Below are positions 13,594 to 55,005 of a DNA stretch of 64,000 nucleotides, one piece after another. Position 1 is the first letter of the stretch. Every line of letters begins with the position of its first letter. This DNA comes from Patescibacteria group bacterium (GTDB taxonomy: Bacteria > Patescibacteriota > Patescibacteriia > Patescibacteriales > UBA12465): contig JBAZJV010000003.1 of NCBI GenBank assembly GCA_041651095.1, forward strand, positions 80,293 to 144,292. Direction: 5' to 3'. The translations under genes and the position numbers were made by a program. The notes under the pieces were generated by a model, which ran no database searches, was not told the DNA's origin, and saw only the letters and a program-made list of their open reading frames with translations.

Positions 13594-15351
13594 TTAAGGC
13601 TTGATATAGGTGACGATTTCCTGTCCCGCTTCCAAGCCGGCCGTTATTTCCGTCAGGCCGCCGTCAGCCGACAAACCAGTCTCGACCGGTATTGTCCGGT
13701 AGCTCTTGGTTTGCGGATTATCTATCACTTTGACCGAACTTTGGCCATCCTGATTGATAATAGCGCTACTAGGTATGGCTAAAGCTTGTTTTTTCTCGGC
13801 CACCAAGACAGTCAGATTAGCCGTCATGCCCGGCTTGATTTCCGGCACAGGCGGGAAATCAGCTTTGACTAAGTAATCAACGACTCCGGAAATGACGGTA
13901 GAGGCCGGATTAATAGTCAGGATGGTGCCCGGGAAATGCCGATCCGGGCCAAGCGCGTCAAAAGTATAATCCACGGTCTGGCCGGATTTCAGATCGGCGA
14001 TGTTAGCTTCACTGACATAAGCTTCGACGTGCAGAGCGTTGATATCCTGCAGGACCATCACTTCTTGCAGGGCGTTAGCCTGCTCGCCGACTTTCGTATC
14101 TACTTGGGTTATCGTCCCGTCGGCCGGCGCCTTGAGAATCGTATTGTCGAAGGCCGCTTGAGCCGCGTCTACTTGGCCCTGAGCGGAGAGGATTTGGGCT
14201 TTCGCGGCACTGATATCGGCCGGCTGAGCCTTGGCTTGCATCTGAGCCAGGTTAGCCTTCGACTGCAGCCAGGCGGCGTGGGCGCTGTTGATCTGGTTCT
14301 GGGCGGAAGTAACCTGTTGCTTGGCCGAAAGATTCGCGTTGGTCAAGGCATTCTGCGCGGCGGTAAGAGCATCGGTCAAGGCTTGCTGAGCGCTCCGGAT
14401 GCTGGAGAGGCCGGCATTTTCGTTGCTTTGATAAGTATTGACGGAGGTTTTATAAGCATCAATTTGCGCCTGGGTGATCTTAGCGCTGGGAATTGAATTC
14501 AACAGGGCCGAAAAGCAGTTATTCAAGGCGCTGACATTCTTGTTTAGGACGTTTATGGCGTCACTTACCGCCTGGTTGATATTCGCATCGCTCTTATAAG
14601 CTTGCGCCGCTGCCAGACTAGTGTTCGCCTTGGCTAAGAGAGGCAGAGCCTGATCGTAATCATTACGGAAACTGATCAGGCTGCCGGCATTGGAAACGCT
14701 GAAAGTGTCCTTCAGATTATTGTCGCTTAAGATCTGATTTTCTTTATCCAAAGCGGATTGGGCCGCGGCTAATTGGTTGGCGATGGTGACGACGATAGCC
14801 GACCGCTTGTTATCGGATTGGGTGGTCGGAGATTGCAAGTCGTTCAAGGTGGATTGTGCCTGGTCTATAGCCGCAGAGGTGGATTGTTGTACCGTGGCCA
14901 ATTGACTGACGGAATTGTCATAGGCTACCTGAGCGGCGTTAACCGCTTTTTCGGCTACCTGGATTTGCTCCGGCGTGCTACCGGCCAGGACTTTCTGGTA
15001 ATTCGCCTGAGCTTGAGCCAGGGCGCCTCGGGCGCTGACAAGAGTCGCTTGGGCATTAGCCTGGTTAAGAATAGCTAAAATATCTCCGGCTTTGACTTTA
15101 TCGCCCGATTTGACATTAACTTTTTTGACCACGCCATTGGTCTGGAAACTTAAATTAAGGTTCAAGGCGCTTACCACTTGCCCGGTCGTGAGCACGGTCT
15201 GTCGGATATCTTGTCGGCTGACCTGAGCGGTTTGGATATTGCCGGTCTTATTTTTCCCTTTGCTGACCAAATACCAACCGCCGGCGCCGATCAACAGGAT
15301 GATGATAATCCAAATGATCTTCTTTCTGGTAAAAAATCCGCGGATACTCAT
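13594..15351 (-). CDS. HlyD/MacA-type periplasmic adaptor (membrane fusion protein) with a very long coiled-coil insert (585 aa)
   Basis: N-terminal TM anchor, lipoyl-like VKKVNVKSGDKVKAGDILAILN, about 300 aa of Q/A/N-rich heptad-like sequence, then beta-barrel/MP domains. Confidence 0.8.
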   Translation of the reverse strand: MSIRGFFTRKKIIWIIIILLIGAGGWYLVSKGKNKTGNIQTAQVSRQDIRQTVLTTGQVVSALNLNLSFQTNGVVKKVNVKSGDKVKAGDILAILNQANAQATLVSARGALAQAQANYQKVLAGSTPEQIQVAEKAVNAAQVAYDNSVSQLATVQQSTSAAIDQAQSTLNDLQSPTTQSDNKRSAIVVTIANQLAAAQSALDKENQILSDNNLKDTFSVSNAGSLISFRNDYDQALPLLAKANTSLAAAQAYKSDANINQAVSDAINVLNKNVSALNNCFSALLNSIPSAKITQAQIDAYKTSVNTYQSNENAGLSSIRSAQQALTDALTAAQNALTNANLSAKQQVTSAQNQINSAHAAWLQSKANLAQMQAKAQPADISAAKAQILSAQGQVDAAQAAFDNTILKAPADGTITQVDTKVGEQANALQEVMVLQDINALHVEAYVSEANIADLKSGQTVDYTFDALGPDRHFPGTILTINPASTVISGVVDYLVKADFPPVPEIKPGMTANLTVLVAEKKQALAIPSSAIINQDGQSSVKVIDNPQTKSYRTIPVETGLSADGGLTEITAGLEAGQEIVTYIKP

Positions 15352-15417
15352 AAATGATGGGGTTAAGGCTTATTATTTAAATTAAAAAATCTCAATTTAT
15401 CTTGATCTGATTAATCA

Positions 15418-15446
15418 ATTATAGCAAAATCACGATTTTTAGGCAA
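15418..15446 (-). promoter_or_regulatory. sigma70-type promoter for the efflux operon
   Basis: The minus strand reads TTGCCT-N17-TATAAT (with TGC immediately 5' of the -10), about 65 nt upstream of the ATG at 15351. Confidence 0.5.
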
Positions 15447-15455
15447 AGGTTTAAC

Positions 15456-15484
15456 AATAAAAAAGCCGCTTGTTTTAGCGGCTT
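15456..15484 (-). terminator. intrinsic terminator after guaB
   Basis: AAGCCGC / GCGGCTT stem followed by TTTTTTATT on the minus strand. Confidence 0.65.
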
Positions 15485-15519
15485 GGTTTTTGTTAAAAAA
15501 ATGAAAAAAAATGAAAAAA

Positions 15520-17055
15520 TTAGAGTTTTTCGCCCCGGTAATGATAATTAGGGGCGTCCTGGATATTAGTTAAGCCATGGGGATGGGATTCGGTTAGCCC
15601 AGAGTTCGTTATTAGATGAAAGTTTGCTTTTCTGTGCAGACTGCTTAGGTTTTTTGCTCCAACATAACCCATGCCGGCCCTTAAGCCGCCGATCATCATA
15701 CTAAGAACGATTTCGACGTTACCCTTATAGTCGACCTCTGACTCAATTCCTTCTGGCACCAATTTATCAGTAGTGGTTATTCCGCCTTGTCCGTAACGTT
15801 CTCTGGAAGCCTGATTATCTATCATGGCGCCCAAAGAACCCATACCACGGTAGATTTTGACGGTTCGGCCGCCGCGCCTGATTATTTCGCCGGGAGTTTC
15901 GGTGGTTCCAGCTAAAACGCTGCCAAGCATGACGTTGTCTGCTCCGGCGGCAATCGCAATGGCAATATCGCCGGAAAATTCAATGCCGCCATCGGCACAA
16001 ATAGGAACTCCCGATCCCCTGACCGCCTTAGAACAGTTATATATCGCCGTAACTTGGGGACAGCCGATGCCGGCGATTATCCTGGTCGTACATATTGACC
16101 CAGGTCCTTGGCCGACCTTAATGCCATCGACCCCGGCTTTTACCAGACGTTTGGCAGAATCGGGTTCGGATATGTTTCCAGCTACGACATCGATATGCGG
16201 ATAGTATTTTTTACAGAATTTTATAGTTTCTATCACCTTCTTAGAGTCACCATGGGCGGTATCGATAACTACCACATTAACCTTTTCTTGGCTTAGCAAT
16301 TCCATCCGTTCTTCTAGATCAGGTCCAACGCCGATGGCTGCGCCGACTATCAGGCTGCCAGAGCTATCGACATTATATTTTTCGGAACTCTTTAGGACTA
16401 TTCTTGTGACATCAGCCCAGGTATAAATGCCTTTCAGACTGCCGTCACGGTTAAAGATTGGTAAAATTTTCTTCTTATTTTCCAACATTTGTTTATAGGC
16501 CTGCTGAATAGTGGTTCCGGATTTACCGAAAATTATTTCTTTGGACATAATTTCCGATATTTTTTTATCCGGATTTGGGCAGAAATCAAAATCGTTATGC
16601 GTAACTAAGCCGATGATTTTGCCGGAACCGTCTCTAACCAGAAAACTATAAAATTTATAACCCTTTTCTTTACCCATTTTGATCACACCGCCCACCGTAT
16701 CATCTGGTTTTATGCAAATAGGGTCGCTAATAAAAGCAGATAAATGGTGTTTGACTTTGCCAATCATGCTAGCCTGCATTTTAGGAGACAAGGCTTTATG
16801 GATGATCCCCGAGCCGCCAGTCTTAGCCATAGCGATCGCCATTTTGTATTCGGTTACCGTATCCATTGGCGAACTGATAATCGGTATTTTAAGCATTACA
16901 TTAGTAGAAAACTTGGAACTTGTAACCATCCTCTGGTCGCTCGGGATAATGTCGGAATATCCGGTTGCCATCCGAACATCCTTATAGCTTAGAGCTAGCC
17001 CCGATTTGTCGATTTTTCTAAAAAAAGCATCGATCTTGCTAATCTGCTTGTTCAT
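15520..17055 (-). CDS. guaB: IMP dehydrogenase (with CBS pair)
   Basis: SSPMDTVTE, CBS pair region, catalytic loop GQGPGSICTTR, GGIEFSGDIAIA, MGSLGAM. Preceded by a strong SD (GGAGGA, 7 nt before the ATG). Confidence 0.9.
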   Translation of the reverse strand: MNKQISKIDAFFRKIDKSGLALSYKDVRMATGYSDIIPSDQRMVTSSKFSTNVMLKIPIISSPMDTVTEYKMAIAMAKTGGSGIIHKALSPKMQASMIGKVKHHLSAFISDPICIKPDDTVGGVIKMGKEKGYKFYSFLVRDGSGKIIGLVTHNDFDFCPNPDKKISEIMSKEIIFGKSGTTIQQAYKQMLENKKKILPIFNRDGSLKGIYTWADVTRIVLKSSEKYNVDSSGSLIVGAAIGVGPDLEERMELLSQEKVNVVVIDTAHGDSKKVIETIKFCKKYYPHIDVVAGNISEPDSAKRLVKAGVDGIKVGQGPGSICTTRIIAGIGCPQVTAIYNCSKAVRGSGVPICADGGIEFSGDIAIAIAAGADNVMLGSVLAGTTETPGEIIRRGGRTVKIYRGMGSLGAMIDNQASRERYGQGGITTTDKLVPEGIESEVDYKGNVEIVLSMMIGGLRAGMGYVGAKNLSSLHRKANFHLITNSGLTESHPHGLTNIQDAPNYHYRGEKL

Positions 17056-17267
17056 CGTTGTATCCTCCTCGGATTTATGGTTTATTGATTTTATTTCCTA
17101 ATTGTTAAAAAACTATATAGCTTAGTATGATAATTAATTTTTTAAATTTTGTAAATAGTAGTGTCAACGGCCCAAAAAAATGTTCGGAGTCAAGTTATCA
17201 ACACCCCCGGCAATCAAACCAGGGTCGTTTTTCAGTCTATGTCATAAAAATAGCTAATCCTAGCGGC

Positions 17268-17296
17268 TTGCCCCTTTATACTGTATATGGTATAAT
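17268..17296 (+). promoter_or_regulatory. candidate nrdAB promoter
   Basis: TTGCCC (17268-73), N17, TATAAT (17291-96). Confidence 0.45.
17278..17293. promoter_or_regulatory. NrdR-box-like site 1 (weaker)
   Basis: ATACTGTATATGGTAT matches about 11/16 of the acaCwAtATaTwGtgt consensus as I recall it. Overlaps the -10 and spacer. Confidence 0.3.
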
Positions 17297-17310
17297 AAAT
17301 AGTACTTTAT

Positions 17311-17326
17311 ACACTATATATAGAAA
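17311..17326. promoter_or_regulatory. NrdR-box-like site 2
   Basis: ACACTATATATAGAAA matches 13/16 of the recalled NrdR-box consensus. Centre lies about 33 bp from site 1. Confidence 0.4.
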
Positions 17327-17364
17327 TTGAGGTTATACCCTATCTTCGGTTTCTAAACATCTCT

Positions 17365-19929
17365 ATGTCACTGACCATAGTTAAGATAGACGGCAAAAAA
17401 GAACCGTTCGACGCCGACAAGATCAATCAGGCCATTGCGGTCGCTTCGGCTGGATTGCCGGATCAAGAGGCTAAGATTACTCAAATCGCCACGGAAACCA
17501 GCCTAACCCTGTATGACGGCATCACGACCACGGAACTGGATAACGCGGTCATCAACGCCACGGTCCAGAATATCAAAGATGACCCGGATTTCGACATTAT
17601 TGCCGCTCGGTTGCTCTTAAAAATCATTTATAAGGAAGTTTTGGGCGATTTCCGGAATGACGACGACTTGCGGCAGAAGCATCGCGATGGTTTTGCCGCT
17701 TATGTGAAGCGCGGTCAGGACGAAAAGATCTTGTCTCCGGATTTACAGGTCTTTGATCTGGACCGCCTGGCCGATGCCCTGGATCTCCGCCGCGACTCTT
17801 TACTAACCTATACCGGCTTATCAACCATGCGCAGCCGCTATCTGATCAAGAACGCCGCTCAGAAGCTGCAGGAAACGCCGCAATATTTCTGGATGCGCAT
17901 CGCGATGGGTATGGCCAGCCGGGAAAAAGCAGCGACCGAAACCGCCATCCGTTTCTATAATAAGATGTCCAAGCTGGAATATGTAGCTGGCGGTTCCACC
18001 AATATCAATGCCGGCACGACTTCGCCGCGCCTGAGCAATTGTTTTTTGATGGACATGGAAGACAATATCGGCCATATCGGAAAAACCGTCGCCGACGTGA
18101 TGAAGCTGTCCAAAGCGACCGGCGGCATCGGCCTGGCTGTCACCAAGTTGCGCGCCAACGGTTCGCCGATTTCTACCAACAATACCTTTTCTTCCGGGCC
18201 GATCCCTTTTTTGCATATCATCGATTCCACCATCCGGGCGATCTCTCGCGCCGGCAAGAAGATGGGCGCGCTCTGTTTCTATATGGAAAATTGGCATATT
18301 GATTTTCAGGATTTTTTGGATTTGAAGCAGAATGCCGGCGATGATTACCGCCGGGCCCGAACCGCCAACATCGCGGCCTGGATTTCCGACGAATTCATGA
18401 AACGGGTCAAGAACAAGGACAGCTGGTATTTATTCGATCCCAATGACGTGCCGGACCTGGTTGATCTCTACGGCGAGGCTTTTTCCAAGCGTTACAATGA
18501 ATATGTGGCTATGGCGGAAGCCGGCCAGATGCGAATCTTTAAGAAAATCCCGGCGACCGAGCAGTTCAATAATATGATCGTTTCCCTGCAGGGCACTTCC
18601 CATCCCTGGCTGACCTGGAAAGACGCCGCCAACGTCCGGGCGCTTAACAATAACACCGGCACTATCCATAGTTCCAATCTCTGCACGGAAATCACCTTAC
18701 CGGCCGATAAGGACAACGTCGCGGTCTGCAATTTGATGTCGATAAATTTATCGCGCCATCTGACGCCGGAGAAAGAGGTAGACTGGGAACTGCTCAAAGA
18801 AAGCGTCCGGACCGGCGTCCGGCAACTGGATAACCTGGTCGATATCAATCAGCCGCCGATTCCGGAGGCCGGCAACTCGGACCATAATAACCGGGCGGTC
18901 GGCATGGGCGTTATGGGTCTGGCCGATATGTTTGAAAGGCTTAATATCGCTTATGACAGCCAGGCTGCTTACGACCTAAGCGACCAAATCATGGAGTTTA
19001 TCAGCTACCAGGCCATCGGCGCCAGCGCCGACCTGGCGGCGGAAAAAGGCAGCTATGCCAATTTCGCCGGTTCCGGCTGGTCCAAAGGACTGGTTCCTTA
19101 TGACACGTTGGCGATTTGGGAAAATGATCGCGGCGAGAAACTGACGGTGGACCGAACGGCCCGTTTAGATTGGGAATCGCTCCGCGCCAAGGTCAAGCGC
19201 GGCATGCGCAACGCTACCCTGCTGGCCATCGCTCCGACCGCGAATATCGGACTGATCGCCGGCACTTCGACCGGCATCGACCCGCGCTTTGCTCAGATTT
19301 TCAGCCGCAACACCCTATCCGGCAAATATCTGGAATTGAATTTCAATCTGGTTGAAAAATTAAAGAAACTGGGCATCTGGGAAAGCAAGCGCGAGGAAAT
19401 CCTGATCGCGCAAGGAGACCTGACCGATATCGACGGCATTCCGGAAGAAATCAAGAAGATATATAAGGATTCTTTCTCGGTCCAGCCGGCCGCTTTCGTG
19501 GAAGTAGCCGCGCGCGCCCAGAAATGGGTCGATCAGGCGATAAGCCGCAACATGTATCTGGCCACCCGCGATACGGAGGAAATCATGCAAATCTATCTGG
19601 GTGCCTGGGAAAAGGGCCTAAAAACTACGTATTATCTGCATATGAAACCGCGCCATACGGCCGAACAGAGCACCATTAAGGTTAATAAGTCAGTCAGCGT
19701 CGGTAAAAAAGGTTTCGGCGCCATCCTGGCTGATAAAGCCGCATCAGGGCTGGTCAATATTCCGGTGCCGGAGAAAGTGCCGGCCGCTCAACCGCTGAAC
19801 AAGGCGCCGGAAATAGCGGTCTCAACGGATATGGCGGCCGATCAATTACCTTTGAACCAGGAATTTAAAATCGGGCAGTCTTGCCCCGTGGATCCGCAGG
19901 AGCGGCTCTTATGCGACAGCTGCCAGTAA
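17365..19929 (+). CDS. nrdA: class I ribonucleoside-diphosphate reductase alpha subunit (one ATP-cone)
   Basis: ATP-cone (VKIDGKKEPFDADKI), active site SNLCTEI, radical-transfer pair TTYYLH, C-terminal redox pair CDSCQ. Confidence 0.92.
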   Translation: MSLTIVKIDGKKEPFDADKINQAIAVASAGLPDQEAKITQIATETSLTLYDGITTTELDNAVINATVQNIKDDPDFDIIAARLLLKIIYKEVLGDFRNDDDLRQKHRDGFAAYVKRGQDEKILSPDLQVFDLDRLADALDLRRDSLLTYTGLSTMRSRYLIKNAAQKLQETPQYFWMRIAMGMASREKAATETAIRFYNKMSKLEYVAGGSTNINAGTTSPRLSNCFLMDMEDNIGHIGKTVADVMKLSKATGGIGLAVTKLRANGSPISTNNTFSSGPIPFLHIIDSTIRAISRAGKKMGALCFYMENWHIDFQDFLDLKQNAGDDYRRARTANIAAWISDEFMKRVKNKDSWYLFDPNDVPDLVDLYGEAFSKRYNEYVAMAEAGQMRIFKKIPATEQFNNMIVSLQGTSHPWLTWKDAANVRALNNNTGTIHSSNLCTEITLPADKDNVAVCNLMSINLSRHLTPEKEVDWELLKESVRTGVRQLDNLVDINQPPIPEAGNSDHNNRAVGMGVMGLADMFERLNIAYDSQAAYDLSDQIMEFISYQAIGASADLAAEKGSYANFAGSGWSKGLVPYDTLAIWENDRGEKLTVDRTARLDWESLRAKVKRGMRNATLLAIAPTANIGLIAGTSTGIDPRFAQIFSRNTLSGKYLELNFNLVEKLKKLGIWESKREEILIAQGDLTDIDGIPEEIKKIYKDSFSVQPAAFVEVAARAQKWVDQAISRNMYLATRDTEEIMQIYLGAWEKGLKTTYYLHMKPRHTAEQSTIKVNKSVSVGKKGFGAILADKAASGLVNIPVPEKVPAAQPLNKAPEIAVSTDMAADQLPLNQEFKIGQSCPVDPQERLLCDSCQ

Positions 19930-38088: not shown

Positions 38089-38096
38089 ATATGAAT

Positions 38097-38140
38097 AAAA
38101 TACCACGAAAATCCGGGCACTGTCCATTAACCCGCGACCG
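38097..38140 (-). repeat. weak copy of the island repeat (TTAATGGACAG module plus hairpin)
   Basis: The minus strand reads GCGGGTTAATGGACAGTGCCCGGATTTTCGTGGTATTTT and shares G(A/G)GTTAATGGACAG with the copy at 39671-39716. Confidence 0.35.
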
Positions 38141-38190
38141 CGAAGGCGCGCCAGCGGCGCCTGCTTTAAGCATATTTTTATTTTTATTAA

Positions 38191-38529
38191 TTAACACGCT
38201 TGCTCAAATTTAACGATTTTCTTGATAACCGCCCCTTGAAACAATCTGAAGGCCGGGCGCTTCTCTTTTTCATAAATCATCGGGACGCCCAAGAGCCGCC
38301 CGCATTTCCGGCAAACCAACGGCGGCAACGATTTAAAAGATTTGCCGGCCAAATCGCTGTAATCTTTTGATTTATATATCCTGTCCAGATACATTCTTTT
38401 CAATATTCCGGGACCGTCCTTTTGATAAAATCCCACAATCTGGCCGCAACCTTCGCAGCTGATTTCCAATAACCGCGAATATCCGCCCCGGTTTTTCTTG
38501 TATTTATCATTTTTCAATTTATTTTTCAT
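38191..38529 (-). CDS. hypothetical protein with two CxxC pairs (zinc ribbon-like)
   Basis: CEGCG...CRKCG; basic N-terminus; no recognisable family. Confidence 0.5.
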   Translation of the reverse strand: MKNKLKNDKYKKNRGGYSRLLEISCEGCGQIVGFYQKDGPGILKRMYLDRIYKSKDYSDLAGKSFKSLPPLVCRKCGRLLGVPMIYEKEKRPAFRLFQGAVIKKIVKFEQAC

Positions 38530-38574
38530 AATCTAATAGTAGCATATCGCTTAGAAGCTTTAAACCCGCCGCTA

Positions 38575-38638
38575 AAAATAGCCCGGAAATAGGGCTATTT
38601 AAACAGCGCAAAGCTTGGAATACAATTGGAACGAACGG
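38575..38638 (-). repeat. island repeat copy (decayed tRNA-Gln T-loop/acceptor-like motif plus hairpin) after the HNH gene
   Basis: The minus strand reads CCGTTCGTTCCAATTGTATTCCAAGCTTTG...AAATAGCCCTATTTCCGGGCTATTTTT. Confidence 0.45.
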
Positions 38639-38676
38639 TTTATTATATCAAATCGACCGAAGCCACCCCCTTGACT

Positions 38677-39087
38677 TTAGAAGATAATTTTATGCTTTTT
38701 AAAAGAGTTGCACCTTTTACATGCTATTCTTAGATTTGAAATATCGTTAGAGCCGAAACTTTGGCTAGCAACTTTTTTCCCAAATTCAGGCTTTAATTTT
38801 CTTAAAAGCTTATTAAGTTTATTAGTTGAAAGCGGTATAAAATGATCAACGTCAAATTTCTTTATTTCGCCGCAATCTGGACATAAATTTAATTGGCATT
38901 TTTCCCCATGTTTTGAAATTAATTCTTTATAAATTTTATTCCTGATTAAATTAAATTCTTTTCTTTTGGTCTGCGGATTTCTAAAATCAAACATTCTTGA
39001 AAATTTTTTTTCAAATAAAATCTTATCGCCGTTCGCTAATTTTTTGAGAAAATAATTGTAATCCGTTTTATATCGGAAATTGTCCAT
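38677..39087 (-). CDS. HNH endonuclease
   Basis: CPDCG...DVDHFIPLS...N...CKRCNSFKKHK (HNH with a Zn-binding Cys pair). Confidence 0.7.
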   Translation of the reverse strand: MDNFRYKTDYNYFLKKLANGDKILFEKKFSRMFDFRNPQTKRKEFNLIRNKIYKELISKHGEKCQLNLCPDCGEIKKFDVDHFIPLSTNKLNKLLRKLKPEFGKKVASQSFGSNDISNLRIACKRCNSFKKHKIIF

Positions 39088-39150
39088 GACACTAATATTT
39101 TATAACTTTACCAAAAAAGATGACAACCAATAGCCAGAATTATACGAGTT

Positions 39151-39179
39151 TATCGGAGTCCGAGACATAGTTGGAACTG
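39151..39179 (-). repeat. island repeat copy after the NUDIX gene at 39199-39645
   Basis: The minus strand reads CAGTTCCAACTATGTCTCGGACTCCGATA (20/26 identical to the copy at 43434-43461). Confidence 0.45.
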
Positions 39180-39198
39180 TTATAAACATAGCGAACCG

Positions 39199-39645
39199 CT
39201 AATCATTCCAACCAAGTTCACTAAAAAATATATTATCATTAATTTTATTCAAGGCCTGTTTTACTTCAGGAGCAATATTATCAGGGAGAGCATCTAATTT
39301 AAACCATTTCAATTCACTGCATTTATCAGGCTCCATATTTGTGATTTCCCCGGTCCACTTCTTTACTTTTAAGTAAACATCGAAATATTCACGGTCTGGT
39401 CTAAATCTGTGAAGCACATGAACCACCTCTGAATCCTTAGGGGAAATTACTATATTTGCTTCTTCCAATGCTTCCCTTGATATGCATTGTCCAGCCGTTT
39501 CACCGCCATCAAAATGTCCTGATACTAAGCTATAGTTCCCATCCTGATATCCAGTATTATAACGTTTTGAAAGTAAAACTTTATCGTCTTCCATTAAAAC
39601 TAAATAAGCAGCTGCGTAGGGCCTGAATCTGTCTTCTTTAGACAT
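39199..39645 (-). CDS. NUDIX hydrolase
   Basis: Nudix box GHFDGGETAGQCISREALEEANI. Confidence 0.8.
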   Translation of the reverse strand: MSKEDRFRPYAAAYLVLMEDDKVLLSKRYNTGYQDGNYSLVSGHFDGGETAGQCISREALEEANIVISPKDSEVVHVLHRFRPDREYFDVYLKVKKWTGEITNMEPDKCSELKWFKLDALPDNIAPEVKQALNKINDNIFFSELGWND

Positions 39646-39670
39646 ATTATTAATAATTATTTATATAACA

Positions 39671-39716
39671 AAAATACCACGACAAGTGGTATTCTGTCCA
39701 TTAACTCGGGATTTGT
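39671..39716 (-). repeat. island repeat copy (acceptor-like CCCGAG + TTAATGGACAGAATACCAC hairpin) after the nitroreductase gene
   Basis: The minus strand reads AAATCCCGAGTTAATGGACAGAATACCACTTGTCGTGGTATTTTT. The hairpin plus T-run also serves as a terminator. Confidence 0.5.
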
Positions 39717-39724
39717 TAAAAAAT

Positions 39725-40249
39725 TTAAATAATAATTTCCTCCAATTTCTTCCTTTCTCTCGGTCTTGATTCGCCACCCGGAAAACCAAAAGGGATCATA
39801 ATTAATGGCCGCAAATTATTATGTAGCGCCAGGGCTTTTTTAACTTCATCCTCATTAAAAGATCCGATCCAAACCGAAGCCAATCCCTTGGAAGCTATGA
39901 CAAGCTGCAAATAAGCCGCCAATATAGTTGCATCTTGAAGTGCATAAAGAAGTTTCCCTCTCTCTTTAAATACTGTTTCCGATTCCGCCGGGTCGGCGCA
40001 AATAACAAAAATTACCGGCGCGCTCATGATTGATTCTTGTTTGGTAAAATTTCTAGTAAAAGTCGCTTCTTTCAGCAACTCTCTTTTATCTTTAGTCCTG
40101 ACAATTTTAACCTTATAGGCTTGAAGATTGCCGGCCGAAGGAGCCAGTTGAGCCAAACTTAAAATCTCCCGCACTATTTCTTCAGAAATTTCAGTTGGCT
40201 GGAACTTTCTGATTGATTTTCTGCTTTCTAAAACATTATTGAAGTCCAT
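39725..40249 (-). CDS. nitroreductase-family protein
   Basis: RKSIRKF, PSAGNLQ, and a C-terminal FGFP pattern. Confidence 0.8.
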   Translation of the reverse strand: MDFNNVLESRKSIRKFQPTEISEEIVREILSLAQLAPSAGNLQAYKVKIVRTKDKRELLKEATFTRNFTKQESIMSAPVIFVICADPAESETVFKERGKLLYALQDATILAAYLQLVIASKGLASVWIGSFNEDEVKKALALHNNLRPLIMIPFGFPGGESRPRERKKLEEIII

Positions 40250-40269
40250 AAAGTGAAACCTTTTACTAT

Positions 40270-40662
40270 CTAAAAACCAAAATGCTTAAGAGTCGGCTTG
40301 ATATTAGGAGCTATAGCTTCTTTATCTAGATCATTTATATCTATCCAGCGCCATTCTCTAATGTCTTCCCCTGGTGTTATTTCGCCGATTCTTCTGGCTA
40401 AAAAATGAACCAATACGACGCTGACTTTCATCCCATCTTTTTCTTTTTCAGTATAAAATAAATATGGCTCATTATCCGTTATTTCTACATCTAACCCCAT
40501 TTCTTCCTTGACTTCCCTTTTGGCTGTTTCTTTTAAATCAATATCGCTTTCCTCAATCCGACCGCCACAGAACTTCCAAAAATTGTCTTTCCCATCTTTG
40601 TTTAATAAAACTTTATTATTTTCCACTATAACCGGCCCCGAAGCAATTATTATTTTAAGCAT
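40270..40662 (-). CDS. NUDIX hydrolase
   Basis: Nudix box GGRIEESDIDLKETAKREVKEEMGL. Confidence 0.8.
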   Translation of the reverse strand: MLKIIIASGPVIVENNKVLLNKDGKDNFWKFCGGRIEESDIDLKETAKREVKEEMGLDVEITDNEPYLFYTEKEKDGMKVSVVLVHFLARRIGEITPGEDIREWRWIDINDLDKEAIAPNIKPTLKHFGF

Positions 40663-40773
40663 AATATTGATCTATTTTAATATTAACACCGTCCATTCCA
40701 AACTTCAATATAAAAAGACCCGAGCCGGATATACCCGGATCAGGTCTTTCTTTGAATCTAAATTCGGATCAGA

Positions 40774-41250
40774 CTATTTGACTGGCACGCATAAGTCAGT
40801 CAGGAATACGCCGCCATCCTTTTTCGGGTCATTGCGGTAAATTTCCAAACAAGGCTTATTATCCGGTTCATAACCGCTTTGCGGCAGCCATTCCCGATAC
40901 AATTCATCCCAGGCCTGTTCAAAACCGGCCGTGTCTTTGACTTTTACCCTGGCGACAGCATACTTGCCGGCCGGCAGGGTTTCCAGGTTCAAACCACTGC
41001 CCGAAATCTCGGTCCCAGCCGGCACGCTCAGGCAGATATCAACGCGGAGTTTGTCCTCGTCAGTAATCTTCGGGTCATCATAATAAGCGCTGAGAAACAT
41101 GGCCTCGGGCGTCAATAAGCCTCTTGGCCCGGCCCAGCCGCATAAGCGTCCGAAAGCTTGGTCGAAAAGAGCGCTGTTATTCTTAAAATTACCGATATGA
41201 CGGACATAGGCCACTGTCAAGGCGGGCATTTCTTGGATCTTAACTTCCAT
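40774..41250 (-). CDS. GyrI-like small-molecule-binding domain protein
   Basis: MPALTVAYVRHIGNF...E.cLSVP..., a typical GyrI-like/AraC effector-binding fold pattern. Confidence 0.7.
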   Translation of the reverse strand: MEVKIQEMPALTVAYVRHIGNFKNNSALFDQAFGRLCGWAGPRGLLTPEAMFLSAYYDDPKITDEDKLRVDICLSVPAGTEISGSGLNLETLPAGKYAVARVKVKDTAGFEQAWDELYREWLPQSGYEPDNKPCLEIYRNDPKKDGGVFLTDLCVPVK

Positions 41251-41430
41251 ATTGCTTGGCTTAAAATTATTAATAATGATTCGACCTTTATTTTTATTTA
41301 TTAAATACTATTTTCGGTTTTGTTTCGGTTATGATATTAATATAACAAACTTTTAAAAATATGGCTAGCTCCGGCGTCTCGGCCATTTATGAACACATCA
41401 CTGACCTAAGGGAAATAACATCCTGGCAAC

Positions 41431-41491
41431 AAAAATACTGGCATAATGCCAGTATTTTTATTTAGCTCGAGGTTTGGGATATAATCGAAAC
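41431..41491 (-). repeat. best-preserved island repeat: copy of the tRNA-Gln 3' end plus its terminator hairpin
   Basis: The minus strand reads GTTTCGATTATATCCCAAACCTCGAGCTAAATAAAAATACTGGCATTATGCCAGTATTTTT. Compare the tRNA-Gln flank GGTTCGAATCCCTGTCCCCGAGCTAAATAAAAAATACTGCTATATAGCAGTATTTTTT. Confidence 0.7.
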
Positions 41492-41508
41492 TTTTATAAT
41501 TCCTTGTA

Positions 41509-41904
41509 CTAGGCTGATTGTTTTTTATATTGGGACAGACCAAGGATATTGCCCTCGGAATCCTTAAACCAGGCCAAGAAACCCATGGCGCCATTTTCTC
41601 CCAGAGGGGTTTTCCCTCTCACAATCGCTCCTCCCTGAGCGACAATTTTTTCAAGCGTGGCGTCGATATCCTCCACGTCAACGTAGAACATCGGATAAGG
41701 CATCTGCGGATCGCGTTTGCTGGATCCGCCATTTATAAATCCCGGCGCGGTTGGCTGCATCTTTTCGTCAACCGGACCGGTTTGCCAACTAGTATAACCA
41801 AATTTTTCCCATTCAAACGGTTGCCAGCCAAAAACATTTTGATAAAAAGATTTGGCCCTGTCTTTATTATCCCACGGAAACTCAAAATGTGTAACTTTAT
41901 TCAT
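41509..41904 (-). CDS. VOC-family (glyoxalase/bleomycin-resistance fold) protein
   Basis: VTHFEFPWDNKDRAKSFYQNVFGW... and the C-terminal WFKDSEGNILGL. Confidence 0.75.
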   Translation of the reverse strand: MNKVTHFEFPWDNKDRAKSFYQNVFGWQPFEWEKFGYTSWQTGPVDEKMQPTAPGFINGGSSKRDPQMPYPMFYVDVEDIDATLEKIVAQGGAIVRGKTPLGENGAMGFLAWFKDSEGNILGLSQYKKQSA

Positions 41905-41971
41905 AAATTTAAATTTATGTTTTAAATATGTGACCAGAATAGCACAAGAAGTAATATTTTGTAAACCTAGA

Positions 41972-41996
41972 TCGCCTGGAGGGAATATTTTCGGAC
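41972..41996 (-). repeat. degenerate island repeat copy after the ArsM-like gene
   Basis: The minus strand reads GTCCGAAAATATTCCCTCCAGGCGAT (GGGA-TAT..TCG.AC core on the + strand). Confidence 0.35.
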
Positions 41997-42027
41997 TTTT
42001 TATGAAAGCCTCTTAATAAATTAGCGT

Positions 42028-42759
42028 CTATTTTGTCAATTCAACCATTATACTTTCTAAGGGCATGCCACCATATTGCTGCTTGCTAATATCGGGGTTC
42101 TCATAAAGAATCCTGACTTGGAAACCGGCATTCTTGATTTTATTTAAATATTCATCTCTTAACAGAGCGCCGGCGACGCAACCGGAAATCAACTCATCAT
42201 TGTTTCTCTGCTCTGCTGAGAGTTTTCCCAACAAGACGATATCTGAAAGATAGATTTTGCCACCCACTTTTAACACTCTATATGCTTCGCTGAATGTCTT
42301 AGCTTTATCTGGGGTGAGATTAACCACACAGTTTGTGATTATCATATCTACCGAACTATCTGGCAAAGGAATATTTTCTATTTCTCCCAATAAAAACTCA
42401 ACATTTTGGACACCTTGTTTCTTAGCGTTTTCTTTAGCTTTTTCGACCATTTCTTCCGTCATATCGACACCGATTACCTTTCCTGTGTCGCCCACTCTTT
42501 TCGCCGCTAAAATGGCATCTATACCGGCACCGGAGCCTAGATCAAGAACAATATCACCTGCTTTTATTTTGCTAAAAGCCAAAGGATTGCCACACCCTAG
42601 GCCCATATTCGCTGCGCCAACGGTTTTTAAATCTTCAGCTGTATAACCTATGCTTTTTGATATACTATTTGCGCTATTACAACCACAGCCACACCCCGAA
42701 TTGCTCGCCGCTATTTTTCCATAAGCATTTTTAACTATCTTTTTAATATCCTTTTCCAT
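42028..42759 (-). CDS. arsM: arsenite methyltransferase-like SAM-dependent methyltransferase
   Basis: N-terminal GCGCGC cysteine cluster, SAM motif VLDLGSGAGID, and downstream ISGCVAGA, as in the ArsM/UbiE-type enzymes I recall. Confidence 0.7.
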   Translation of the reverse strand: MEKDIKKIVKNAYGKIAASNSGCGCGCNSANSISKSIGYTAEDLKTVGAANMGLGCGNPLAFSKIKAGDIVLDLGSGAGIDAILAAKRVGDTGKVIGVDMTEEMVEKAKENAKKQGVQNVEFLLGEIENIPLPDSSVDMIITNCVVNLTPDKAKTFSEAYRVLKVGGKIYLSDIVLLGKLSAEQRNNDELISGCVAGALLRDEYLNKIKNAGFQVRILYENPDISKQQYGGMPLESIMVELTK

Positions 42760-42815
42760 ATAATCTTAAGAATTTAATTAATAACAGATTAAATTTAATT
42801 ATTCCCTTTTATTAA

Positions 42816-42854
42816 TGGTATTTTGTCCATTAGCTCGATGTTTAGGATATCATC
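42816..42854 (-). repeat. island repeat copy after the toxin gene
   Basis: The minus strand reads GATGATATCCTAAACATCGAGCTAATGGACAAAATACCA (22/26 identical to the copy at 41464-41491). Confidence 0.55.
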
Positions 42855-42865
42855 AAAACGGTTAC

Positions 42866-43111
42866 TTAGTAACTATTGTAGGTTTTATCAGATCTTCTCT
42901 CAATAGTTAAAATGAAATATCGGCCAGCGCCTTGTTTTTTAAAAATTATTCTCAATTTCCCTTTTCTGATACGAAAAATGTCATCGCAATTTTTCAACTT
43001 TTTCAAATCAAATCCCAACAAAGAACCACTTTTTATTTTTAGTAAGACGCTCTTAATCATTCCCCTTTCCTGCGGTGATAAACTTTGCAATGCTTTAGCG
43101 ATCTTGTCCAT
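42866..43111 (-). CDS. type II toxin, RelE/ParE-like
   Basis: 81 aa with KKLKNCDDIFRIRKGKLRIIFKK...ILTIERRSDKTY, the pattern typical of RelE/ParE toxins. 4 nt downstream of the antitoxin gene. Confidence 0.6.
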   Translation of the reverse strand: MDKIAKALQSLSPQERGMIKSVLLKIKSGSLLGFDLKKLKNCDDIFRIRKGKLRIIFKKQGAGRYFILTIERRSDKTYNSY

Positions 43112-43115
43112 AAGA

Positions 43116-43331
43116 TTACAAGACGGCTAAAAGTTCATCGATATTAACACCACCTTTTTTGATTTTAGCAAAATTGATAACTTCCTCCCATCTATCATCT
43201 TCATTTATCGGAGTCAATTTAAAAAGAGGTTTGCTTTGTTTTAAAACGATGAAAGATTTGCCGGCTTTTACTTCAGTGGCATATTTATCCATATTAAGCC
43301 GCAAATCTTTTAACGCTATTAGATTTTCCAT
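43116..43331 (-). CDS. type II antitoxin, Phd/YefM-like
   Basis: 71 aa; N-terminal LKDLRLNMDKYATEVKAGKSFIVLKQSKPLFKLTP resembles the Phd/YefM fold. Confidence 0.6.
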   Translation of the reverse strand: MENLIALKDLRLNMDKYATEVKAGKSFIVLKQSKPLFKLTPINEDDRWEEVINFAKIKKGGVNIDELLAVL

Positions 43332-43363
43332 ATATTTTGAATTAAATAAATAAGGTTAACTAT

Positions 43364-43392
43364 AGTTTAACAAAAGATTACCCTTGTGTCAA
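43364..43392 (-). promoter_or_regulatory. near-consensus promoter for the TA pair
   Basis: The minus strand reads TTGACA-N17-TAAACT, about 30 nt upstream of the antitoxin ATG. Confidence 0.55.
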
Positions 43393-43398
43393 GAAAAT

Positions 43399-43461
43399 AA
43401 AAATAGGCTTTTAAAACCTATTTTCGCGCTTTACTCGGAGTTTGGGATATACTTGGAACAA
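43399..43461 (-). repeat. island repeat copy (T-loop/acceptor-like motif plus hairpin) after ORF 43522-43785
   Basis: The minus strand reads TTGTTCCAAGTATATCCCAAACTCCGAGTAAAGCGCGAAAATAGGTTTTAAAAGCCTATTTT. Confidence 0.6.
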
Positions 43462-43521
43462 TTTTACACAAAAATAAAAGAGGCGCATACTAAGCAACCT
43501 CTTTTGATAAAATCAAACATT

Positions 43522-43785
43522 TTACAGATCCTTCTCATGGGCAATTCTTCGCCTGTTTACTAAATCTGCTGAGTATTTTCTGAACTTTTTTTCATCCATG
43601 CCAATAATAGCTTGACTGTCCATATCAAGCGAACCGTGGAATTCATCCTTCCTTATCCAGAGGCGATACCATTGGAGTTTAATGCCCCGATGCCAGACAG
43701 ATCTTATAGTTTTTTCTATTCTTAATTTAGTCTCGGATGAAAAATTAAGGCAGAAAAAATATAATTTAATAAATAGCTTATTCAT
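43522..43785 (-). CDS. hypothetical small basic protein (87 aa)
   Basis: Strong SD (AAGGAG, 5 nt before the ATG). W/R/K-rich with no recognisable family. Followed by hairpin 43477-43506. Confidence 0.45.
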   Translation of the reverse strand: MNKLFIKLYFFCLNFSSETKLRIEKTIRSVWHRGIKLQWYRLWIRKDEFHGSLDMDSQAIIGMDEKKFRKYSADLVNRRRIAHEKDL

Positions 43786-43938
43786 TATTACTCCTTTTGT
43801 AAAAAAATATTTTTGAAATATTTATTTAAAAGAACCGTGGTTCCGACAACATATACTTAATATACTTAGGATACTATAAATTCCTTAAAAATACAATTTA
43901 CAATACTCAAACACTTATCGGCTCATTTTTCTTCAATG

Positions 43939-44094
43939 CTCGGGGACAGGGATTTCCGCCTCAGGCGCTCACCAGTTCGCGCCTTCGTTGTCGCGGGTTG
44001 CGTTAAGCATCCCCCGGATGCTTAACGATCGCTCACTGCGTCGTCGGCCTGCTGGCCGCCGACTAGTTCGCTGCAACCCTGTTCGAATCCCCAA
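43939..44094 (-). other. 156-nt GC-rich multi-hairpin element with tRNA-Gln-like termini (candidate ncRNA or folded recombination site)
   Basis: The ends pair as UUGGGGA...UCCCCGA, like the tRNA-Gln acceptor. The 3'-terminal 17 nt are identical to the tRNA-Gln 3' end. Internal hairpins: 44001-44027 (12 bp), 44040-44063 (10 bp, one mismatch), 43964-43983 (5 bp). The strand is assigned only by analogy to the tRNA. Confidence 0.35.
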
Positions 44095-44110
44095 CTCACA
44101 AGATGAAATA

Positions 44111-44140
44111 AAAAATACTGCTATATAGCAGTATTTTTTA
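44111..44140. terminator. bidirectional intrinsic terminator between tRNA-Gln and the structured element
   Basis: AATACTGCTA-TA-TAGCAGTATT perfect stem flanked by an A-run and a T-run. Confidence 0.7.
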
Positions 44141-44145
44141 TTTAG

Positions 44146-44216
44146 CTCGGGGACAGGGATTCGAACCCCGATAAACAGGACCAGAACCTGTTGTCCTACC
44201 GTTAGACGATCCCCGA
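44146..44216 (-). tRNA. tRNA-Gln (anticodon CUG)
   Basis: Hand-folded cloverleaf: acceptor UCGGGGA/UCCCCGA (U1-A72); D arm GUCU-AACGGUA-GGAC; anticodon arm ACAGG-UUCUGGU-CCUGU; T arm CGGGG-UUCGAAU-CCCUG; discriminator G. CCA is not encoded. Confidence 0.9.
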
Positions 44217-54810: not shown

Positions 54811-55005
54811 GGCACGACCTTTATTTTATGAATGATGGGTTTTTAAACGAACGAATAGTTGATTTATCATACTACAATATAACACAAAATCTGTCAATAC
54901 AAAACCAGCCTAAGCTGGTTAGTTGTTCCGGATCATGGATTTGCACCACGATGCACGGCTCCAAAGGCCGCTGTCTTGCTAGCTTAAACGAATCCGGAAT
55001 ATACC

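Follow-up and report, generated by a model that had tools for sequence, protein, structure and literature searches.

A cassette array at the 3' end of a Patescibacteria tRNA-Gln gene, probably an SCC- or integron-like platform driven by large serine recombinases

How does a string of short accessory genes come to be lined up behind a single tRNA gene? The question is raised by a 64,000-nt stretch of a Patescibacteria genome (contig JBAZJV010000003.1; hereafter the window), in which a tRNA-Gln(CTG) gene (44146-44216, minus strand; ARAGORN, and Rfam with 57.4 bits) is followed by 11 short open reading frames (ORFs) between 38.1 and 44.1 kb, every one on the minus strand. The initial annotation of this DNA had seen there an accretion of small units, carried out by a tyrosine recombinase and leaving behind older, decaying duplicates of the tRNA 3' end. 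The reading that we favour, with moderate confidence, is a tRNA-Gln-anchored array of mobile cassettes, assembled by site-specific recombination and driven by large serine recombinases (LSRs). As to its parts, that we deal with a site-specific cassette array at tRNA-Gln is very likely; that the LSR family described below is its engine we hold to be somewhat probable.

The set of sequences searched came to 1.36 Mb and consisted of the window, 78 lysS loci from GTDB genomes and 23 metagenome stretches retrieved with the pattern GTTCCAANNATATCCCAAACNNNGAG; L-numbers designate these loci. Iterated profile searches with nhmmer over the set yielded about 50 members of a site family with the consensus ACCGTTCCAACTATATCCCAAACTCCGAG/C (here and below, the slash marks the junction), and a repeat search of the window recovered its copies as direct-repeat families. 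A weight matrix built from 45 sites outside the window was then scanned over all 64 kb, on both strands. It gave five matches of 15.7 to 41.4 bits (43462-43433, 41494-41465, 38635-38606, 39180-39151 and 42862-42833), all on the minus strand, co-oriented with tRNA-Gln and placed in the spacers of the island, just 3' of stop codons. The sixth-best score was 2.0 bits, no site was present in the remaining 58 kb, and shuffled windows contained on the average 0.025 matches of at least 14 bits. The repeat family proposed by the initial annotation is therefore real, better than chance and tied to tRNA-Gln. It was also absent from the 70-odd lysS loci without a tRNA-Gln array; neither in these nor in the window does it follow core genes at large. 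In L001, L003 and L076, sites occur only downstream of tRNA-Gln and in the same orientation, and in the metagenome stretches the tRNA genes within reach were tRNA-Gln on the same strand in 5 cases out of 5 (4 CTG, 1 TTG). Sites lie 3 to 60 nt past the stop codon of a co-oriented ORF and bound mostly one-gene units (e.g. in L083, L084, L085 and L097). A viral origin was considered and rejected, IMG/VR viral contigs containing no match for the site, the GC-rich element or the LSR described below.

What is the relation of the site to the tRNA? The tRNA end and the repeat have 13 of 17 positions in common, with an exact core, CCGAG(C), of 5-6 nt; at one copy (41431-41480) the resemblance to the tRNA flank (44111-44160) amounts to 74% over 50 nt. 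The repeats, however, share derived traits, namely a 5-nt insertion and the motif CCCAAAC, across genomes whose LysS proteins are only 65-80% identical. This conservation points to a maintained site type, and not to decaying tRNA duplicates as had been supposed. Nor is the 'CTAAAT plus hairpin' segment a duplicated tRNA flank: it is the variable left end of the next unit, which we call a right arm. As RNA, the site is G-poor and unstructured. In addition to the five sites, the window has three degenerate junctions: at 39705/39704, where the left arm is truncated (39716-39671 reads AAATCCCGAG/TTAATGGACAG); at 41971/41970, where the site (41996-41971) belongs to a divergent class that is present in L103 too; and at 38131/38130, where there is only a right arm.

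That the site is a point of exchange emerges from comparisons between genomes. The five genes upstream of lysS are syntenic in relatives and synteny is gone exactly after tRNA-Gln. In L003, whose LysS is only 77% identical to that of the window, the window NUDIX (74%) and the pair formed by the Phd-like ORF and its partner (92% and 80%) are found right after the tRNA-Gln of L003, in a different order; the NUDIX gene directly follows the GC-rich element of that genome. This toxin-antitoxin pair is 81% identical in DNA between the two genomes, as against about 70% for the lysS region, and in both genomes the homology stops 3 nt beyond GAG/. Another cassette, the 77-aa ORF of which lies on the opposite strand, is about 90% identical among L001, L088 and L083, in the last as far as the contig reaches. 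Three different left arms precede it, and its homology always sets in exactly after GAG/; in L001 and L088 it breaks off at the following GAG/, with unrelated sequence beyond. Over all array-to-array alignments, 26 of 149 homology ends fell within 8 nt of a junction; 2.4 were expected from randomised junctions, with a maximum of 11 in 2000 trials. The right homology ends cluster at 0 to +5 relative to the junction. Related genomes thus differ in gene content with breakpoints exactly at the repeats, as the accretion idea had anticipated.

Several right flanks, moreover, are interchangeable between left arms of different kinds. The flank CAAATAGACAAAATAGCAC.. occurs after a true tRNA end (L099), after a repeat (L083) and after the end of a GC-rich element (L103); CAAAACAC.AAA.CAGG.. 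occurs after a repeat (L082) and a GC-rich element (L076), and CCAACA..ATTTTG.TGTTTAAGACCGACA likewise (L076 and L102, respectively). Such flanks always begin after GAG/. Since the same flanks are found behind a tRNA end and a repeat that share only 13 nt out of 17, the exchange must be site-specific, at or within the core, rather than by homologous recombination.

Which enzyme could do this? In L085, a 508-aa LSR (Resolvase, Recombinase and Zn_ribbon_recom domains) is encoded convergently with tRNA-Gln and overlaps its last 49 nt. Genes for a rolling-circle Rep (REP_ORF2-G2P) and other products lie behind it. The element ends about 7.4 kb away in a repeat-type site, CTGTTCTAATTGTATCCCACCCTCCGAG/, after which there are four additional cassettes with their sites; the one locus thus combines an LSR element and an array of four sites. 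L008 and L104/L105 have LSRs of 87-94% identity at this place, again next to lysS-greA, and L006 has a 27%-identical one there. Others, 68% identical, overlap tRNA-Ser(GCT) just as these overlap tRNA-Gln, at the 3' end. There, the Ser-specific elements of L110 and L107 end distally in AACCGTTCCAACTACGTCCCACCCTCTCCGCA/ and AACCGTTCCCAGTGCGTCCCACCCTCTCCGCA/, that is in sequences (CCGTTCCAACTACGTCCCACCCTCTCCGCA) that mimic their own tRNA-Ser, ..GGTTCGAATCCCCGCCTCTCCGCA/. The tyrosine recombinase of the initial annotation has accordingly to give way to an LSR as the implicated enzyme. From the repeat-type distal ends of both Gln- and Ser-specific elements we infer that the repeat is an element-derived attP-type arm and the tRNA end the host attB-type arm. 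Two other interpretations were discarded: L008 is not an 'empty site', its flank being an LSR gene end, and the ~6.9-kb contigs L110 and L111 are not free circular LSR elements, as their ends do not overlap and they represent integrated copies severed at the tRNA.

The geometry of the arms fits an LSR as well. In all 8 tRNA-Gln genes examined GTTC(C/G)AA ends 14 nt from the junction, in all 44 repeats it ends 19 nt from it, and no intermediate spacing occurs. As Rutherford et al. (PMC3783163) showed for serine integrases, the motif bound by the zinc-ribbon domain is nearer to the crossover in an attB half-site than in an attP one, by 5 bp. The tRNA-Ser elements follow the same 5-bp-offset design. 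LSR gene ends have also left traces at junctions: the L083 junction keeps 19 codons of the end of an L006-type LSR gene, and the window has a 14-nt scar, the source of which can be seen in L085, L008 and L104, where the LSR gene end abuts the tRNA-Gln junction.

Two side observations concern these elements. They have a common backbone, in which the Rep (REP_ORF2-G2P or RepSA) is preceded by a protein of about 310-325 aa without Pfam match (L085:5057-7302, L107:6871-9057, L110:1949-4610 and L111:2948-5153), and look like small integrative plasmids or single-stranded-DNA-phage-like elements of Patescibacteria, though without a match in IMG/VR. In L106 (1590-1915, minus strand), ARAGORN made no call on what reads as a tRNA with a GTG (His) anticodon and an insertion of about 250 nt in the anticodon loop, which may be a group I-like intron. 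The 3' end of that tRNA (..ATCCGACCCCGGGAG/CATTGAAGAAAAATCGC) is occupied by an LSR with 87% identity to the tRNA-Gln-specific enzyme, so that this LSR type may act at a second tRNA whose 3' end is similar.

Taken together, the mechanism would be the following. A cassette would consist of a variable A/T-rich left end with a hairpin (terminator-like and partly promoter-like), one to three genes, and a conserved 29-nt site at its 3' end (..GTTCCAA-CTATA-TCCCAAACTCCGAG), strand exchange taking place at or within the common CCGAG/C. The enzyme would belong to a Patescibacteria LSR family carried by 7-9 kb elements with a rolling-circle Rep that integrate at tRNA 3' ends. The tRNA end would provide the bacterial-type half-site (GTTCGAA 14 nt from the junction) and the repeat a tRNA-mimicking, phage-type half-site (GTTCCAA 19 nt from the junction), and cassettes with a repeat and without a recombinase would be moved in trans, in parallel with integron cassettes and with SCC elements that lack ccr. 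The GC-rich element would be the first unit, its own bacterial-type site re-creating the target arm away from the tRNA; one LSR element would once have used that arm and left the 14-nt scar. The site family and its tRNA-Gln specificity, the exact junctions, the exchange of flanks, the LSR genes at the junction in relatives and the 5-bp offset are observed; that an LSR moves the small cassettes, and which pairs of sites recombine, we infer.

A number of points weigh against this reading. No integrase or recombinase is apparent among the proteins of the window when read by eye, as already said in the initial annotation, and Pfam searches on the larger ORFs of the array flanks found a recombinase nowhere except in L085, L008, L104 and L006; the larger ORFs of the other flanks encode Fic, alcohol dehydrogenase, trypsin-like proteases, FMN reductase and metallophosphatase. 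Canonical LSRs recombine attP with attB only, depend on a directionality factor for excision and do not reuse attL or attR, and arrays need the repeated use of hybrid sites. An LSR site should also consist of inverted half-sites of related sequence around a central dinucleotide, and by inspection the right arms show great diversity, with several unrelated classes, and give no mirror image of the left arm. In L083, the LSR scar is placed after a phage-type left arm. The crossover can be placed no more finely than within CCGAGC. The sole other assembly of the locus (ENA k141_1313983, 233,933 bp) is 100% identical to the window, and neither circular cassettes nor strain-level presence or absence could be observed; exact look-ups of LysS and Phd for strain variants likewise returned nothing. 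Finally, the Phd/81-aa module is also found between core genes, without sites, in other Patescibacteria; the cargo is therefore not confined to arrays, and the module spreads by additional routes. Three explanations may be considered: this LSR family might discriminate its partners by the left half-site only, insertion being then freely reversible; it might be promiscuous, as Ccr recombinases are; or another enzyme might move the small cassettes.

The last explanation leads to the alternative that survives best, although we think it unlikely: the array is the same site-specific one, the recombinase is another, encoded elsewhere (a tyrosine recombinase/integrase, Xer, or unknown), and the LSR elements exploit the same target and sites. 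Most arrays indeed lack a linked recombinase, diverse and non-symmetric right arms suit one-arm recognition better than classical LSR sites, and tRNA 3' ends are, as is generally known, classic targets of tyrosine integrases (see also bioRxiv 10.1101/2020.12.28.424599). However, we saw no tyrosine recombinase in about 1.5 Mb of related loci, and LSR genes lie exactly at the junction in at least four of them; the repeat is the far end of LSR elements with either specificity, Gln or Ser; the exact 5-bp offset is an LSR signature; and long exact tRNA duplications, which tyrosine integrases should leave, are absent save at the 3' end of the GC-rich element, a single tRNA-proximal unit.

Less probable still, indeed improbable in our view, is that the units are remnants of successive integrations of whole LSR elements or islands, which lost their backbones by deletion and were reshuffled by homologous recombination between sites or terminators. 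Here one can point to the LSR scars at junctions, to the cargo that LSR elements bear beside their repeat-type end, and to the 29-nt conserved sites, which could act as short homology. Against this stand the cassettes whose two boundaries are both exact junctions in several contexts, and the exchange of flanks between tRNA and repeat, for which 13 nt out of 17 with a 5-6 nt core is too short for a RecA-type process; besides, one canonical LSR integration leaves no attB, so that a serial accretion of whole elements would go unexplained. That the repeat takes no part in recombination and is a generic terminator or RNA-processing sequence (similar to repetitive extragenic palindromes, or a tRNA-like signal for 3' processing), or else a resemblance due to chance, can be largely dismissed in spite of its being G-poor, unstructured as RNA and always just 3' of genes, beside hairpins with T-runs, because it is missing from the other 58 kb of the window and from the array-less lysS loci, is strictly associated with tRNA-Gln, coincides with homology breakpoints and is put beyond chance by the shuffled windows.

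In the array, the unit nearest to the tRNA deserves separate attention. Between the hairpin that follows the tRNA and the first cassette there is a GC-rich element (43939-44090, minus strand; about 150 nt, 63% GC) that starts with GGATTCGAAC and ends with GGCGGAAATCCCTGTCCCCGAG. Counted with the C that follows, its last 17 nt (43954-43938) repeat the 3' end of the tRNA without a mismatch and in attB-type spacing, a feature that had escaped the initial annotation. The notion of units ending in a tRNA 3' copy thus holds for this element, and for no other unit. Further copies of the element stand behind the tRNA (L001, L003 and L076) or behind repeat-type sites (L098, L101, L102 and, twice, L103); every copy is preceded by a class ii right arm (CTAATAAAAA..hairpin), and the terminal tRNA copy changes along with the tRNA of its host, having G in the window and A elsewhere. 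No Rfam family was found for it, whether at the gathering score or at E <= 1-5, save terminator-driven noise. Its fold has a z-score of -3.6, and a covariance model (R1) found 10 copies at 8 loci, in two subfamilies. In the corresponding alignment, which was fitted to the model and hence leans toward the structure, 85.9% of the cells are paired, versus about 38% in slid controls, and 24 pairs are changed on both sides, versus 3-8. G.U and A.C pairs (17 versus 14) are counts that leave the strand of the structure undecided. Judged from its alignment, the element is a new, covariation-supported structured RNA or DNA.

A tmRNA or tRNA-like gene was ruled out, ARAGORN and Rfam finding none and the putative acceptor pairing not being conserved among the copies, although the 5' part of the element, GGAUUCGAAC..AGCGAG, bears a likeness to tmRNA 5' ends. 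Hammerhead and group II motifs were also set aside, the resemblance being limited to short motifs. The recombinase scar of the window follows the end of this element and not the tRNA itself, which argues that the element served as a second target arm. It would then be a non-coding cassette that re-creates the capture arm and insulates the tRNA. Apart from this family, L076 has a second, unrelated GC-rich structured stretch (4340-4506), after a repeat-type site and a CTAATAAAAAAA hairpin, which ends in TAATCCCTATCCCCGAG/; positions 157-227 of L081 and the vicinity of position 2975 in L091 resemble short versions of it. There may consequently be more than one family of non-coding cassettes ending in an exact tRNA-Gln 3' copy.

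The successive parts of the window array, all on the minus strand, can now be described from the tRNA to the distal edge. The attB-like left arm is made by the last ~22 nt of tRNA-Gln(CTG), GGTTCGAATCCCTGTCCCCGAG (44167-44146), with the GAG/C junction between 44146 and 44145. The class ii right arm that comes next (44107-44145) is a terminator-like, extended hairpin with A/T flanks, CTAAATAAAAAATACTGC-TATA-GCAGTATTTTTT, as judged from its sequence and a nine-copy comparison. The GC-rich element is then followed by the 14-nt scar CATTGAAGAAAAAT (43925-43938), which is the antisense of the last element-encoded LSR codons (..DFSSM).

Cassette 1 (43433-43937) carries the 87-aa ORF (43522-43785) and the canonical site ATTGTTCCAAGTATATCCCAAACTCCGAG/T (43462-43433), with 41.4 bits from the weight matrix and an nhmmer E-value of 3.7e-8. 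Cassette 2 (42833-43432) has a promoter-like TTGACA-17-TAAACT of its own, the Phd-like ORF (43116-43331), its 81-aa partner (42866-43111) and the site ACCGTTTTGATGATATCCTAAACATCGAG/C (42862-42833; 15.7 bits). Of the site-less copies of this Phd/81-aa module, those in L114-L122 (e.g. L118:3350-3960) lie at leuS-rsmA and at purF-DUF4153 and keep a conserved promoter-operator, TTGAC..AAGGTTATCTTTTGTTAAACT; in L124 and L125, the module has a decayed site. Cassette 3 (41971-42832) starts with the class i right arm CTAATGGACAAAATACCA, contains an S-adenosylmethionine (SAM) methyltransferase gene (42028-42759) and ends in the divergent site GTCCGAAAATATTCCCTCCAGGCGAT/C (41996-41971), of a class that sits before GC-rich elements in L103; by inspection its spacing, GTCCGAA-5 nt-TCCC, is of the attP type. 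Cassette 4 (41465-41970) has a vicinal-oxygen-chelate (VOC)/glyoxalase gene (41509-41904) and the site AAAGTTTCGATTATATCCCAAACCTCGAG/C (41494-41465; 30.7 bits, nhmmer E = 1.9e-6).

Cassette 5 (39705-41464) is the one with three genes, GyrI-like/Cass2 (40774-41250), NUDIX (40270-40662) and nitroreductase (39725-40249), between a class ii right arm (CTAAATAAAAATACTGGC..GCCAGTATTTTT, 41464-41431) and the truncated site AAATCCCGAG/T (39714-39705). In cassette 6 (39151-39704), a class i right arm (TTAATGGACAGAATACCAC..GTGGTATTTTT, 39704-39671) precedes a NUDIX gene (39199-39645) and the site ACAGTTCCAACTATGTCTCGGACTCCGAT/A (39180-39151; 21.6 bits); L010 has a homologue that is 62% identical. Cassette 7 (38606-39150) encodes an HNH endonuclease-like protein (38677-39087; Pfam HNH) and ends in TTCGTTCCAATTGTATTCCAAGCTTTGCG/C (38635-38606; 22.7 bits). 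At the distal edge, cassette 8 (38095-38605) starts with a right arm of class iii, CTGTTTAAATAGCCCTATTTCCGGGCTATTTTT, and contains the Zn-ribbon ORF (38191-38529); it is also found in L087 and L095 (72-76% DNA identity), with the same site and class iii arm before it. At the last junction, ..GTCGCGGG/TTAATGGACAG..GTGGTATTTT (38131/38130), which was recognized as a direct repeat, the left arm has changed beyond recognition, and an extra copy of a right arm, not reported by the initial annotation, is present at 38130-38095.

The commonest right arm, (C/T)AAAT(A/G)GACAAAATA followed by a hairpin and TTTTTGTTATATA, reads TTGACA-N17-TATTTT and is seen in the window at 39704-39671, 38130-38095 and 42833-42816, as well as in L083 (279-320) and L099 (7955-7995). 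A class i right arm may thus end transcription of the cassette before it and also start that of the cassette behind it; in a promoter/terminator scan of the island, the enrichment was too low to inform.

The array stands out from its surroundings by its composition. Its GC content per kb, from 38 to 44 kb, is 0.384, 0.358, 0.392, 0.419, 0.366 and 0.335, and flanking bins are mostly at 0.47-0.57 (about 0.52 around the island), which bears out the GC drop noted previously by eye. The low GC, together with the 81% DNA identity of the toxin-antitoxin cassette to that of L003 (about 70% for the lysS region), speaks for a horizontal origin. Pfam supports the HNH, both NUDIX, the nitroreductase, GyrI-like/Cass2, glyoxalase/VOC and SAM methyltransferase assignments; the Phd match is weak, the Pfam matches of the Zn-ribbon ORF are all below threshold, and the ORF formerly called RelE (the 81-aa partner) and the 87-aa ORF have no Pfam match. 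The functions first proposed for these genes are therefore upheld, except those of RelE and Zn-ribbon type. The flank on the tRNA side is made of core genes (lysS, greA, glycosyltransferases); on the far side come an inositol-monophosphatase-like gene, an HD-domain gene, zur and znuABC. LysS groups the host with Falkowbacteria-like Patescibacteria, the best genome match being 80% identical.

Some features of the neighbourhood are recorded here for their own sake. In L001 (11469-11903) and L104 (2058-2504), a Pyr_excise (T4 endonuclease V-like) gene lies between lysS and tRNA-Gln. It is missing from the window and constitutes a small presence/absence difference, limited to some relatives, on the conserved side of the tRNA. 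A further GC dip in the window (15001-18000, 0.43-0.45), at an inosine monophosphate dehydrogenase gene and the start of a ribonucleotide reductase gene, coincides with a switch of coding strand and a turn of the cumulative GC skew. A second 'tRNA-Gln(TTG)' (54925-54998, minus strand) is weak, with 42.9 bits in Rfam and an unusual T arm, GGTGCAAATCCATGA; downstream of it the window has neither a site nor an array. It differs in this from the normal tRNA-Gln(TTG) of L100, which has a site about 1 kb downstream.

If the LSR-driven reading is true, its consequences are of some generality. Patescibacterial genomes are tiny, and cultured genetics is lacking; a hot spot dedicated to the capture and swap of single genes would explain how they gain accessory functions, in this case detoxification, toxin-antitoxin and nucleotide-sanitising ones. 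It would also account for the assembly breaks at tRNA-Gln. Contigs of several relatives stop at that gene, and those of L002, L005, L013, L104, L110 and L111 break off at most a few hundred bases away from the target tRNA or the LSR gene; population variability at such loci probably breaks short-read assemblies, and arrays are then probably under-represented in metagenome-assembled genomes. For the engineering of integrases, the matched attB- and attP-type arms for Gln and Ser should be useful, as they show an LSR reading the T-loop and acceptor strand of a tRNA. Lastly, there would be a second evolutionary route to an integron-like platform, based on a serine and not a tyrosine recombinase. 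Going further, one may tentatively picture a serine-recombinase counterpart of the integron, with a tRNA 3' end as fixed capture site, promoter-bearing single-gene cassettes that are labelled by a tRNA-mimicking, phage-type half-site and exchanged reversibly because only the left half-site distinguishes the partners, and the conserved 150-nt element as a portable second capture site or insulator; we regard this extension as possible rather than probable.

How does the array compare with known systems? Literature searches found no integron-like, tRNA-anchored system described for Patescibacteria. Its layout is that of integrons and of clusters of attC sites lacking an integron integrase (CALIN), as the initial annotation had recognized: co-oriented one- or two-gene cassettes each with a 3' recombination site, a fixed primary site at one end, a similar cargo (toxin-antitoxin, Cass2/GyrI-like, VOC, Nudix, methyltransferase), and cassettes that are common to several genomes and reordered among them. 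Yet no IntI tyrosine recombinase was found in the window by eye or in the larger flank ORFs with Pfam, an enzyme that a CALIN does not need either. The sites also differ. attC sites are imperfect palindromes of 57-141 bp, with R'' (RYYYAAC) and R' (GTTRRRY) boxes, conserved in structure and not in sequence. Those of the array are 29 nt long, non-palindromic and conserved in sequence, the only hairpins being, on inspection, those of the next unit, past the junction; a tRNA 3' end serves as the primary site, and many cassettes seem to bring their own promoter and terminator.

Tycheposons of Prochlorococcus are tRNA-adjacent islands that grow by successive integrations, with tRNA-like repeats between the units (bioRxiv 10.1101/2020.12.28.424599). 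As in these, and in the accretion of cis-mobilizable (CIME) and integrative and conjugative elements (ICEs), older units would be pushed outward from the tRNA gene. Tycheposons, however, have tyrosine recombinases, true partial tRNA duplicates and multi-kb units normally provided with an integrase of their own, whereas our repeats form a mimic type of their own, conserved and offset by 5 bp, and a serine recombinase is implicated; only the GC-rich element ends in an exact 17-nt copy, and the other units end in 13/17 mimics with the 5-nt insertion. By the defining features of IntI and attC the array is not an integron, nor is it a tyrosine-integrase island. With the LSRs of phages and ICEs (A118/LI, Bxb1, phiC31), the enzymes at the junction in relatives share the Resolvase, Recombinase and Zn-ribbon domains, the 5-bp shift of the distal motif, and exact junctions without long duplications. 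They differ from them by a recombinase gene whose 3' end runs into the target tRNA, by right arms that are neither conserved nor symmetric, and by hybrid junctions that are apparently reused.

The staphylococcal cassette chromosome (SCC, including SCCmec) remains to be considered. There, an LSR (Ccr) inserts at the 3' end of one conserved gene, which is kept intact; composite islands consist of tandem units separated by the repeated integration-site sequence, and pseudo-SCC units without recombinase, presumably moved in trans, lie in the same arrays. The locus studied here likewise has serial insertion at the 3' end of one gene, repeated sites between the units and recombinase-less units. The target is rlmH in staphylococci and a tRNA gene in Patescibacteria; SCC elements measure 10-60 kb, versus 0.4-1.8 kb for the mostly single-gene units described above; and the site is here a 29-nt tRNA mimic with phage-arm geometry, the recombinase being absent from most arrays. 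The likeness is one of mechanism only, the link to Ccr seen here being that of common Pfam domains alone. The array is probably an LSR-driven cassette platform of SCC- or integron-like type and, by analogy, it resembles SCC composite islands still more than it does integrons or CALINs.

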